64,000 nt of DNA from Sedimentisphaerales bacterium (GTDB taxonomy: Bacteria; Planctomycetota; Phycisphaerae; Sedimentisphaerales; SM23-30). The position numbers are program-made. Where the stretch lies: positions 100,421-164,420 of the forward strand of contig CAXXFK010000018.1 of NCBI GenBank assembly GCA_963663965.2, given 5' to 3'. Positions 39,001 through 42,000 of the stretch are shown here, one piece after another (the first letter of the stretch is position 1; every line of letters starts with the position of its first letter).

Positions 39001-42000
39001 TTCATAGCAGATTCCACTTCTGTCTTGCTTTCTCATCAATCTTTCATCAACTTGTATTTATCATCCTGGAGGATAAGGCTCTGCTGGAGAGCAACCTGAG
39101 CGTCAGGTCAGGGTGATGCGGAGACAAGAGGCTCAGGAACAGGCCAAGTTGTCCTTGAGCCATTTTTGTTTTAGCTCACAAAGTGACAAACTCAATCAAA
39201 ACAGTATCGCCGCAGGTGCCCCCATCTTTGTCACATCGGCATTCGGTCAGTGAACTTGATGGCAAGCTGGTTCATCGCTGACTTACCGGCGCCGTATCGG
39301 CATTGTCCGTTTTTTTGCAATATTTGCAAGAGCCAAATAAAAAATCTTCGGTATGGACACTTCAGTTCAACCTGGAATCAATCACGGACCATCCTGACCT
39401 GTGATCCTGGTCATCGTAACGGCGATTGCCGGTTTTATCGCACCTATCCTTCATGTCTGAAGAAAATGAGAAGATATCGCCCCTGGGAAGATGATAAACT
39501 TGCTTTGATATTCTCGATCCCGATGCCTGTATCAACAAATGAACTGTAGTTGGCCGAGATTAATTCACCGACCGCACAGTTGTCCTTGATCCATAGATGT
39601 CCTTTCAGACAAATCAGAGCAGGGAAAAGGGGACATTCTACTTTTTGCTTACCATTGGCTGTTTCGGGTTTAAAATGCCGGTATTATGCCAAGGACAGCA
39701 AGAGCCAGTGTGGGTGGTATGTGTTATCATGTGATCCATCGTGGTAATGATCGTGCGGAGGTATTTCACCGGTATCAATTGCCAATTCCCCTTGGGTAAC
39801 CAGGATTGGATAGGGGGCATTGCCAAGAAAATTGGATTAGAGCAGACCATTCGGCCAATGGGATGTCCACGGAAAGATGCGAAAAAGTAGAATGTCCCCT
39901 TTTCCCTTTTTTCAGATTCGTTGTGAGAAAGAGAAAAAGAACCGGCTGGATATGTCATTCTGGAATGGGGTGGCCGTAGAAAATGGAAAAATTTAAATTA
40001 GGCGTTACAAGTAATACTCGAGCCAATTAAAGATTATAACTCTATTTAGATTAAGGCATTAGCAATTCAGGGTGGATGCCGCGTCATTGTTTTTCAAGTG
40101 ATTTAATCACCATGGCTAAGATTTATTTTGTTTTGTTCTGGTCCTAAACCCGATATAGTAATATAATTGCAATTAGTATAAAGTTTGGTTTGCTGAGTGA
40201 GTAAATCGGCTCGGGTCAGGTTTGTTTCTGTCCCCTCCCAAATTTCTCCTTCAACCTTCCATTTTTATCAGGCTGAATTGTCGGCCGCTTTCTGTGTGAC
40301 CTGGAAAGTTGAATGAGGGTCACATACCCGAAGATAACAGGAGATTTTGTTATGGGTAAAAAAGTATATGTTGGAAACTTGACCTATGGTGTATCGCAAG
40401 CGGATCTGGAACAAATGTTCAGCGCTTACGGTACGGTCGAAAGCGCTCAAATTGTCATGGATCGCACCACCGGGCAAAGTAAAGGATTTGGGTTTGTTGA
40501 GATGAGTAGCGATTCGGAAGCGCAAGCTGCAATCGGAGCGTTAAACGGTCAGGACTGCGGCGGCCGGGAACTCAAAGTGAACGAAGCCAAGCCGCGCGAA
40601 AATCGTAGTGGCGGGGGTGGTTATGGTGGCAGCCGCGGCGGCGGCGGTGGCTATGGTGGCAGTCGCGGCGGCGGCGGTCGAAATCGCTATTAATCACATA
40701 GACAGACTAAGCGCAAAGGAGGCCCAAACATTGTGGCCTCCTTTTTTATTTTATGTGCAAGTTCAAATAATGGCAAAGGGCGTAAAATATGGTACCGGCT
40801 AAGAAGGGCAATGCCGTAAAAATACACTGTTTGGAAAAACTGGATGATGGCACAATATTTTTTAATTTTGACAATCAGGATCCGATGGAATTGACTATCG
40901 GCGATTGACAGGTCATCCCAGTTTTGAACCGGTGTCCCCCTCCCCATTGTCTTGACAAAAATATTGACTTTTTCAGGTGGAGTTATCGTCTGGGCGGGGG
41001 CAGTCGTCCCGGAAGGAGCCCGGAGAGCGACTGGAGTTCGTCATGGATTAATAGGCGGGAACGAGGAATCTGGCAGCGGCGGTTCTGGGAGCATTGGGTT
41101 CGGGATTCGGTTGATTATGAAAATCATGTCCATTATATTCATTATAATCCAGTGAAACATGGATATGTCGAGTATCCGCAGGATTGGCCGTGGTCGTCGT
41201 ATCATAAATTTGTGGACAAGGGCTGGTACGCGGGATTTGATTGGAATCGCATCGGTGAATTGGAGATACCGGATGCGTATGAAGATGGGCAAAAATAATC
41301 CGTATAGACAGAGTGTTTCTTTCACATTAAAGAACAGCGTGGGCGGCGCCCACCCGACGGGTTGTGGAGGAATCAAACAGCGTGGGCGGCGCCCACCCGG
41401 GGTTTGGAATTATTGGGGTTTGACGATTTTTAAATAATCGGGCAGGGGGGAGTTTTTGAGGGTTTTGATGCCCTGGGTGAGGCAGGTGGCGTTGGACTGG
41501 GCGCCGAGGGCGTTGGTGTGGGTGGTTTCGTTTTTGTCGAAGTAAAGGGCGGTGACGGTTTTTTGTCCGATCTGGTCGTAGTGGTCGGCGATGAGCCGGT
41601 TGAGGTCGATAAAAAGGGCATCTTGTGCCTGGGCGGCTTGTCGGGCCCAGAGGGCGTAACTGTCGGTGGCGCGGTTGACGGTGTCGCCGGTCCAGTGGTT
41701 GCGCGGGATGGGAGAGCAGACGATGGCGGTGGCGCCTTTGGCCTGGATTTCCTGGATGTACTGGCGGAGGTACCAGCCGTAGGAGTAAACGGTTTCGGGT
41801 TGGCCGGTGAGCAGGTTGTCGATCTGCTGGGTTTCGTCGGTGTTGCCTTTGATGGTGCCGCGGGCGCGCTGGCGGTCGTTGATGGGAGAGGAGTCGTTAT
41901 GGCCGAACTGCATGATGACAAAGTCGCCGGGTTGGATGCGGTCCAGGATGGGCTGCCACAGGCCGGAGGTGCGGAAGGAGCGGCTGCTGGTGCCGCCCAT

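Follow-up and report, generated by a model that had tools for sequence, protein, structure and literature searches.

A conserved leader with a hairpin, an H-type pseudoknot and a predicted start-codon helix upstream of RRM protein genes in planctomycete-type bacteria

The window analysed here, a stretch of 64,000 nucleotides from a Sedimentisphaerales bacterium, encodes a small RRM protein preceded by a long leader. Pfam confirmed the initial annotation of this gene as encoding a single RRM_1 protein with a Gly/Arg tail, and its score against NCBIfam Rbp_regulator NF058537 (116.3 bits, curated cut-off 100) makes it a member of the bacterial RRM-1 Rbp proteins. The gene looks monocistronic. No RNA record was listed as holding the locus; two contig runs of a single sample confirm it as DNA, and one of these may be its source. 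The sequence strings named earlier in the leader were all found in place, within 1–2 nt. The features of the locus are as follows:

40139..40144, + strand: -35-like hexamer TGGTCC, inferred and outside the flags of the consensus scan
40162..40167, + strand: -10 hexamer TATAAT, read from the sequence, 17 nt after the -35-like hexamer
40178..40204, + strand: 5' strand of helix P1, consensus GGUUGG-UUYG-NCGA-NN-GAG, the putative first bases of the mRNA (comparative)
40213..40234, + strand: P2, a variable hairpin inside P1 (pair probability and homolog swap test)
40243..40268, + strand: 3' strand of P1, a pyrimidine block with the consensus CUC-NN-UCGCC..CCYACC (comparative), including the supposed anti-SD at 40243-40251
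40243, + strand: UUUCUCCUU, the CUCCU stretch named as "anti-SD" in the initial annotation (sequence)
40271..40286, + strand: hairpin P3, one nucleotide 5' of the pseudoknot (covariation)
40271/40281, + strand: GGCUGA/UCGGCC (sequence)
40288..40308, + strand: pseudoknot stem S1, CUUUC(U) at 40288-40293 with (G)GAAAG at 40303-40308, near-invariant
40288/40303, + strand: CUUUCU/GGAAAG (sequence)
40296..40323, + strand: pseudoknot stem S2, loop strand 40296-40302 with 40317-40323 (covariation)
40296/40318, + strand: GUGACC/GGUCAC (sequence)
40309-40316, + strand: L3, A-rich in most homologs
40325..40358, + strand: predicted start-codon helix, 40325-40329 with 40354-40358 and 40334-40341 with 40346-40353 (comparative and fold)
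40336, + strand: AACAGGAGA, the ribosome-binding-site string (sequence)
40339..40344, + strand: Shine-Dalgarno (SD) AGGAGA, 7 nt 5' of the ATG at 40352 (sequence)
40352..40693, + strand: RRM_1 protein gene, 113 aa, Gly/Arg-rich tail (Pfam PF00076, E 2e-24)
40715..40747, + strand: intrinsic-terminator-like hairpin with a U tract, inferred (fold -18.4 kcal/mol)

Transcription is predicted to start at about 40175. Among 166 homologs, a TAnnnT motif ends 7–8 nt 5' of the P1 5' strand in 104 and 5–16 nt 5' of it in 145, compared with 27 of 166 for a control window, and TGGACA occupies the -35 position in the upstream regions of several family homologs. As this comparison shows, the mRNA would begin at P1, tying its 5' end to the pyrimidine block. 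AGGAG is enriched at SD spacing throughout the genome, with the same spacing as in the leader. An upstream ORF from the in-frame ATG at 40313 was considered and rejected, as start codons 3' of GAAAG are not conserved.

Taken alone, the leader folds only modestly better than its shuffles (z -1.97), so the evidence for structure is comparative; folding was done with ViennaRNA, which scores nested pairs and leaves knots unscored. Covariation confirms the hairpin and the predicted H-type pseudoknot. The 6-bp hairpin P3 gave a swap z of -14.9 and S2 one of -19.7, with double-sided changes in all six S2 pairs, and when about 9,600 column pairs are ranked by score, the first nine places all go to pairs proposed for P3, S2, the S1 junction or P1. 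S1 itself is almost without covariation: exact CUUUC/GAAAG occurs in 56 of 63 motif leaders picked by protein, the recurrent variant is GGAGAG, and a few copies carry GAAAU or GAAAA. The geometry (median L1 of 4 and L3 of 8, S2 mostly 5–8 bp) is compatible with coaxial stems. A GGGU/ACCC hairpin, earlier suggested as a competitor of S2, fails this kind of comparison; its swap z is +3.5, with native strands pairing worse than swapped ones, and its CCC persists when S2 switches to the GGAUC type. P3 was also flagged by a scan as a terminator, but one such element was found against a shuffle expectation of 2.3 and its U-rich tail is the S1 strand.

Further upstream, P1 is 89% paired, with double changes in 10 of 12 pairs and none of 500 shuffles as high. 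The CUCCU block is accordingly best described, on comparative grounds, as the 3' strand of a 5'-terminal helix and the partner of the predicted mRNA 5' end. Pair 40194/40253 is U-A in the window and C-G in most homologs. The enclosed P2 has a pair probability of 0.96–0.99 in the window and a swap z of -6.1 over 158 homologs. In a replication set of 29 rows most P1 pairs are conserved rather than co-varying, and in 76 of 242 leaders P1 is either absent or not recognised; leaders lacking the pyrimidine block still keep the 3' module. An alternative pairing of the block with the S1 3' strand and L3 reaches a probability of 0.39 at 37 C in the window, with swap z of -2.5 overall, -1.4 in the family and -1.6 outside it.

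A local helix that the initial annotation had missed is predicted to form over the start codon and so to hide the initiation region. This helix (-9.9 kcal/mol at 37 C) covers the AUG and codon 2 and pairs part of the SD close to its loop, and comparison shows the order of elements: the putative stack of hairpin and H-type pseudoknot ends about 26 nt 5' of the AUG and the helix follows. The third base of codon 2 changes in step with the upstream strand of this helix (phi 0.81; no control exceeds 0.60), a relation replicated in 47 new leaders, and the initiation region is more stable in motif leaders (-8.6 kcal/mol) than in 16 motif-less paralogs (-4.2 kcal/mol). Under a tree-based null the key pair has p of about 0.07 (166-row subset), and independent contrasts, which have low power here, gave 2.4 the same way and 0 the opposite way, of 5. 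The start helix is not universal among the leaders: in 105 of the 274 Gly-2 leaders it lacks a CCC partner, and it is short or weak in many Planctomycetia copies. Coupling between the pseudoknot and the initiation region is weak in nested folds (0.7 kcal/mol), opening being harder in 41 and easier in 17 of 75 leaders.

The range of the leader is much wider than first reported. It had been placed in one family only, yet strong matches preceding RRM genes occur in five genomes of two other families of the order, and of 27 distinct top hits in the class, chosen on the protein alone, every one carried the core. About 300 distinct copies, with leaders of 150–179 nt, were collected from many Phycisphaerae families, Planctomycetia, a few Verrucomicrobiota and one Eisenbacteria record; the distribution is patchy across the phylum and tracks one RRM subfamily, the MGKKLYVGNL type. 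The two collection scans required RRM codons and are informative on RRM genes only. A leader-only pattern run on 221 Phycisphaerae genomes found an RRM gene 3' of 57 of the 67 sites examined; nine of the ten other sites have no P3, and the reversed pattern gave 14 hits. A covariance-model search of 151 phylum genomes scored just 17 of the hundreds of candidates per genome, so that its blanks do not mean absence, and its weak matches (E 4e-4 or worse) had no RRM gene 3'. In the genome scan no Bacteroidota row showed a leader core followed by an RRM gene, and L095, a record with a Nitrospiraceae title that passed a loose filter and was kept in the 256-row set, has no model match and was treated as chance. 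In one genome several paralogs carry the leader. The genome studied here has a single copy: none precedes its csp gene or its second RRM gene, and the leader-only pattern found no regulon of other cold genes sharing it.

Judged by sequence comparison, then, the leader is a real, uncatalogued and probably knotted RNA, maintained through compensatory changes in hundreds of bacteria of the planctomycete type; as the initial annotation had stated, no Rfam family matches it (Rfam 15, up to E=10). Most likely the RRM protein limits its own production through it. The specific form of this idea, in which an RRM protein of the cold-shock type feeds back on translation at an initiation region that is closed, we put at about an even chance. 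The initiation region would be closed by default, at an opening cost of about 10 kcal/mol at 37 C, so that the 30S subunit would have to load through the adjoining pseudoknot and A-rich loop in a standby-type entry. When RRM protein outnumbers its other RNA targets, the free molecules would bind the leader at the pseudoknot and/or at conserved P1 mismatches and block loading or clamp the start helix. Paralogs would thereby regulate themselves and one another negatively, and cold shock would probably lift this control as the protein is titrated away. The association of the leader with one gene class fits such feedback, but it would fit any gene-specific signal as well.

Precedents exist. According to the excerpted text of a recent preprint, the RRM-1 proteins of Bacteroides are cold-induced and regulate their own and each other's genes negatively; the feedback acts on long 5' UTRs and is in part post-transcriptional and in part UTR-dependent (Lee, Basu, Vanderpool 2026, PMC13370968). 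The rbpA, rbpB and rbpC leaders of 122–155 nt precede genes of the same NCBIfam family, NF058537; their description in that text includes no structure, whereas the leader described here (150–179 nt) appears structured, and the structural basis of the UTR-dependent feedback is listed there as unknown (PMC13370968). T4/T2 gene 32 also has an H-type pseudoknot 5' of the RBS of a nucleic-acid-binding protein, through which gp32 is described as repressing its own translation (PMC3014915), and autogenous translational repression through such a pseudoknot is likewise reported for the E. coli rpsO/S15 operator (PMC3985624). As described, however, the RBS of gene 32 lies in an unstructured A+U-rich stretch (PMC3014915), while the planctomycete leader would add a helix over the initiation region, a further stacked hairpin and a domain at the 5' end. 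In the +42 mRNA of E. coli tisB, whose initiation region is sequestered, a pseudoknot is reported to be required for standby loading of 30S/S1; in that account the knot lies near the 5' end, the single-stranded standby region is about 100 nt from the RBS and control is by processing and antisense RNA (PMC7708055), whereas here the knot ends about 26 nt 5' of the AUG. The Chlorobi-RRM motif (RF01697, Weinberg et al. 2010, PMC2864571) is likewise a structured candidate cis-regulatory RNA 5' of RRM genes, and its alignment rows also carry GGUUGG near the 5' end, as P1 does. It spans about 73 positions, is drawn with hairpins P1-P3 and a terminator, is confined to Chlorobi, and the part of its description available includes neither a pseudoknot nor a start-codon helix (PMC2864571). 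The RF01697 model had no match in 38000-42500 up to E=10, and its best match in the whole genome, located elsewhere, scored 24.7 bits against a gathering threshold of 45 bits.

The E. coli cspA 5' UTR is a thermosensor and the leader of a small cold-shock RNA chaperone. The leader found here, of similar length (about 160 nt; 159 nt for cspA as cited in PMC13370968), also precedes a small cold-shock RNA chaperone. A protein-independent sensor of this type, in which temperature picks during transcription between two leader folds differing in translation or stability, appears rather unlikely. Gly-rich RRM proteins are described as cold-induced in cyanobacteria (PMC12232666) and Bacteroides (PMC13370968), and in the window the minimum fold at 10 C reproduces the covariation model (P1 0.64, start helix 0.87), with a different fold at 37 C that includes the anti-SD pairing. 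The folding model gives no general temperature switch, however: over 75 homologs the probabilities at 10 and 37 C are 0.17 and 0.16 for P1 and 0.24 and 0.31 for the anti-SD pairing, and P1 in the window drops to 0.13 when the 5' end is shifted by a few bases. Opening costs more in the cold (15 vs 10 kcal/mol, in a nested model without knots and kinetics) and the isolated start helix stays unmelted below 70 C in the model. The leader also has no Rfam cspA match, and the motif is absent before the csp gene.

The near-invariance of S1 invites another, more speculative and in our view unlikely explanation, that S1 is a built-in mimic of the duplex between the 16S tail and the SD. GGAAAG would then be an upstream ribosome docking site about 41 nt 5' of the AUG, masked by CUUUC in the pseudoknot; if protein S1, the RRM chaperone or the pyrimidine block opened stem S1, the 30S could dock and capture the start codon as the start helix breathes. 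The 16S gene of this genome ends in CCUCCUUUCU, to which the S1 3' strand is complementary, and before 2,824 long ORFs GAAAG is 8-fold enriched at SD spacing (188 vs 23.5; 66 vs 21 when not followed by G). S1 alone among the helices is almost fixed in sequence, whereas S2 and P3 show free covariation, and the recurrent variant GGAGAG points the same way. This reading is post hoc, though, and tertiary contacts of the A-rich loop or protein recognition explain the invariance equally well. The S1-16S duplex is worth just -5 kcal/mol; an A preceding GAAAG is rare (11/256) and a G following it is avoided (2/256), although both would aid 16S pairing; the GAAAU and GAAAA copies also fit poorly, and no start codon 3' of GAAAG is conserved (157 of 252 have none, frames even). 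A translational switch in which an S1 copying this duplex is opened or clamped by the RRM chaperone, or by cold, upstream of a start codon buried in a helix that would co-evolve with the first codons of the protein, seems equally doubtful. If true, the mimic would be a new principle of initiation control, conserved across Planctomycetota and reaching Verrucomicrobiota.

Less probable still is the off-switch first proposed, in which a long-range pairing joins the CUCCU block to the SD. Six pairs are possible in the window (probability 0.43 in the nested ensemble at 37 C), a few homologs (L449, L482, L483, L492) have long perfect matches, and in 47 new leaders the swap z is -2.7 without and -1.9 with GC matching. 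Covariation has little power on this pairing because the SD is nearly invariant. Nevertheless, 64.6% of cells are paired compared with 64.7% in shuffles (304 of 500 shuffles are as high), the swap z is +0.7, and -0.3 over 290 leaders, and neither the proposed register nor 11 others found general support or a clear excess of pairing. All five pairs are possible in just 27 of 159 leaders, GGAA-type SDs are uncompensated in 8 of 9, the same bases co-vary with the mRNA 5' end, and the 3' module is kept in leaders without the CUCCU block. What stands of the initial interpretation is a conserved cis-acting structured leader, with hairpin and H-type pseudoknot, that may bear on RRM translation, with autoregulation still the best guess; the proposed closing helix finds no general support, the CUCCU block being assigned to P1. 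A riboswitch that senses a metabolite or an ion, in which the pseudoknot would serve as aptamer and the start helix would be the expression platform, is very improbable: a compact H-type pseudoknot with invariant bases directly 5' of a translation-blocking helix does recall the similar architecture of preQ1-I and SAM-II riboswitches, but the conserved bases sit in a helix (unpaired positions are at most about 70% conserved), the sole downstream gene class encodes a nucleic-acid-binding protein, the pseudoknot shares no bases with the start helix, the GGGU/ACCC hairpin that would link the two is unsupported, and no Rfam riboswitch matches the leader up to E=10.

Autogenous feedback by the RRM protein would bear on a wider question, as bacterial RRM proteins form an alternative cold-shock system and the leader addresses how they sense their own level. 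It would provide a bacterial RRM with a specific RNA target, and it offers a clear case of a leader helix that probably constrains the second codon of the protein. With a deeply covarying model, it adds an RNA family of curated quality to a phylum with few described regulatory RNAs. Its position in the 5' UTR of genes for nucleic-acid-binding proteins, and of that class only, corresponds by gene class to the PBC class as used in PMC11109978. The small module of about 90 nt (hairpin, pseudoknot and start helix) is borne alone by some genes, which makes binding and reporter tests direct, and the carriers include cultured ones by record title, such as Tautonia and Paludisphaera.

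The RRM gene in the window encodes a 113-aa protein that scores above the cut-off of the NCBIfam model Rbp_regulator. A terminator-like hairpin lies 3' of the gene and a leader of about 177 nt upstream of its start, within which Rfam 15 gave no match at E up to 10. The strings named in the initial annotation were all found, each within 1-2 nt of its place. Folded by itself, the leader is only moderately more stable than shuffled versions (z -1.97), so the case for structure, with the following elements, rests on homologs.

40178-40204 with 40243-40268: P1, 5'-terminal helix (5' strand and pyrimidine block)
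40213-40234: P2, enclosed by P1
40271-40286: P3 hairpin
40288-40308: S1 (CUUUC/GAAAG), stem of an H-type pseudoknot
40296-40323: S2, the other pseudoknot stem
40325-40358: start-codon helix
40352-40693, + strand: RRM_1 gene

Protein searches of 25 family genomes and 151 class genomes yielded 62 and a further 28 RRM loci, respectively. More RRM genes came from scanning GTDB and metagenome collections with a pattern, CTTTC..GARAG joined to RRM codons (at least 120 rows each; 14 and 18, respectively, were dropped as lacking an RRM gene). After duplicate removal, 289 upstream regions were left; 252 passed a loose pseudoknot filter and four were re-added by eye, giving 256. A later leader-only pattern supplied a replication set of 47 more distinct leaders. 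Since both collection scans force S1, its invariance was judged from protein-picked genes only, 56/63 of which carry CUUUC/GAAAG.

When 247 leaders were aligned by sequence alone, mutual information recovered P3, S2 and the sixth S1 pair unprompted. Anchoring the pyrimidine block and the 5' element with sequence profiles revealed that these two pair as P1. In an independent MAFFT alignment of 66 leaders, picked to score well against the profiles and to differ from one another, 91.7% of 1,834 cells of P1, P3, S1 and S2 were paired, with double changes in 21 of 28 pairs (0/500 shuffles); the values for P1 alone were 89.3% and 10/12 pairs (0/500 shuffles). Shuffles take no account of kinship, and GC-matched swap tests were therefore added, in which a negative z means that native strands pair better than strands swapped between homologs; negative controls lay near zero. 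The previously proposed hairpin GGCUGA/UCGGCC (P3) and stem S2 were borne out (z -14.9 and -19.7), while P2 gave -6.1 and P1 -2.4. Under a conservative tree-based null, the nine best of about 9,600 column pairs were all among the proposed pairs, one alone having E<0.1. P1 is the weakest helix: it is mainly conserved with few changes, shows little excess in 29 replication rows and is unrecognised in 76/242 leaders. In several genes just the 3' module (P3, pseudoknot and start-codon helix) is present, directly after a promoter or upstream gene. Two paralogous leaders of genome G208 (L333, L341) have a tandem duplication of the pseudoknot part comprising S2 and loop L3, and a variant S1; in L032 (G016) and L037 (G018) an extra segment places the pseudoknot core about 100 nt farther from the start codon.

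The initial annotation missed the start-codon helix, in which the spacer 3' of S2 pairs with the start-codon region (13 bp and -9.9 kcal/mol in the window; swap z -6.8, and -4.8 in the 47 new leaders). In Met-Gly leaders with a CCC spacer (105/274 Gly-2 leaders lack CCC), the base before CCC tracks the third base of codon 2, being A in 39, G in 11 and U in 5 with GGU, and G in 86, A in 1 and U in 1 with GGC. The phi of this pair is 0.81 (0.83 without the own family), against at most 0.42 in 48 other U/C coding columns and at most 0.60 in 89 other A/G columns, controls that share phylogeny and GC drift. The replication set holds 5 A-U, 3 G-U, 18 G-C and 0 A-C; the tree null, with looser anchoring, gives p ~0.07. 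In single cases the amino acid changes together with the helix (L470, with Ala2 and 9 bp; L167; L113; L073).

A long-range helix between a CUCCU block and the Shine-Dalgarno (SD) sequence had been proposed instead. In the 66-leader MAFFT alignment 64.6% of its cells are paired versus 64.7% in shuffles (304/500), and its swap z is +0.7, or -0.3 over 290 leaders; the 47 new leaders give -2.7 before GC matching and -1.9 after. Its pairing probability in the window's 37 C nested ensemble is 0.43, and long matches are present in some homologs. Some lineages may use this pairing as an alternative fold, but it is not a conserved helix. The GGGU/ACCC hairpin, put forward as a competitor of the pseudoknot, has a swap z of +3.5 and is not supported.

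The leader is present once in its own genome, where it was not found before the csp gene or the second RRM gene. A coding-free pattern matched 63/221 class genomes (96 rows, 93 sites; reversed control 14), with an RRM gene downstream of 57/67 examined sites; nine of the ten sites without one had no P3 hairpin. In the own family 36/62 RRM genes pass the pseudoknot filter, and none of the eight MNIYVGNL-type paralogs does. Among such motif-less paralogs (L024, L046, L052, L056, L059) the word GTTCG(GCA) is frequent in the leaders, which may form a second leader family distinct from this one.

The motif had been assigned to family SM23-30 only, but it extends further. A model from 66 leaders gives strong matches, always ahead of an RRM gene, in five genomes of two other families of the order, and has matches in 23/24 other genomes of the own family (1 spurious). 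All 27 distinct protein-picked top class matches carry the motif, a figure that applies to the MGKKLYVGNL-type subfamily, as these matches are the most query-like. Among the matches listed, GTDB rows with the core comprise by title 40 Phycisphaerae, 39 Planctomycetia, 11 unplaced Planctomycetota, 3 labelled Brocadiia, and 1 each of Lentisphaerota, Verrucomicrobiota and Eisenbacteria; a Nitrospirota row is a chance match. A strict pattern (sensitivity 165/252) found RRM-linked sites in just 4/401 genomes sampled evenly over the phylum and 3/301 of the phylum of genome G425. RRM genes in the even sample are mostly of other, motif-less subfamilies (model matches at 3/28 loci), and these results oppose a phylum-wide range. 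The motif is widespread yet patchy.

The window promoter, TGGTCC-17-TATAAT, predicts a transcription start at about 40175. A TAnnnT hexamer ends 7-8 nt upstream of the P1 5' strand in 104/166 leaders; P1 thus starts at the predicted 5' end. The promoter-spacer word CCGATA (40151-40157) is kept in many family homologs (L002-L008, L013, L014, L027, L039), a possible transcription-factor or sigma contact.

Comparison of homologs shows the architecture, the leader's place at the mRNA 5' end (from promoter spacing), the restriction to one RRM subfamily and a closed initiation region. The leader would control translation of the RRM gene, most likely, by analogy, through feedback by the RRM protein. 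Bacteroides RRM-1 genes are described as cold-induced and under UTR-dependent negative feedback (PMC13370968), and cyanobacterial Gly-rich Rbps as induced by cold (PMC12232666); precedents are described for pseudoknot operators (PMC3014915; PMC3985624) and a pseudoknot in a standby role (PMC7708055). In folding models, direct coupling of the pseudoknot to the initiation region is slight (0.7 kcal/mol) and a general temperature switch is not seen; the window's own leader folds differently at 10 and 37 C. The 16S gene of this genome ends in CCUCCUUUCU, and across the genome GAAAG occurs at SD spacing (188 versus 23.5 among 2,824 long ORFs whose starts were crudely called), so S1 equals a 16S-tail:SD duplex. 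Its invariance could, post hoc, reflect a copy of that duplex placed 41 nt ahead of the AUG, although tertiary contacts account for it equally well. Genome-wide, Bacillus-type extended SD use is seen, with GAAAG and AAAGGA strongly enriched before start codons, which implies a mature 16S tail with UUUCU.

The leader is not among the Rfam families. Among the covered main-text passages and supplement matches of Weinberg 2010, the sole RRM leader is Chlorobi-RRM, and neither RRM nor planctomycetes are mentioned in the main text of Brewer 2021 or the text of Narunsky 2024. No planctomycete RRM leader was found in the non-subscription literature; the supplements of PMC5737381 and PMC11109978, outside that scope, could hold the motif. 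Judged from sequence, the leader is a new RNA family of the RRM/cold-shock gene leader kind and a candidate protein-binding one; its structure is corrected here, and its range is far wider than initially annotated. Its consensus 5' word GGUUGG (40186-40192) also occurs in Chlorobi-RRM alignment rows, perhaps as a recognition word for RRM proteins in both, or by chance.

The following features neighbour the leader.

34939-37233: 764-aa protein, HTH_3 domain fused to a dynamin-family GTPase
~37253-37536 and 39621-39907: two copies of a ~290-nt element, 86-87% identical
within 40924-41399: truncated REP-associated tyrosine transposase, a C-terminal fragment (NF047646 at 75 bits, under the cut-off)
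41333 and 41376: two identical 24-nt REP-like repeats, 3' of that fragment

The ~290-nt element has only one weak further match in the rest of the genome. Its terminal inverted repeats are perfect over 26 bp, and it contains a short ORF stub that resembles the N-terminus of a REP-associated/IS200-type transposase; it looks like a miniature non-autonomous element.
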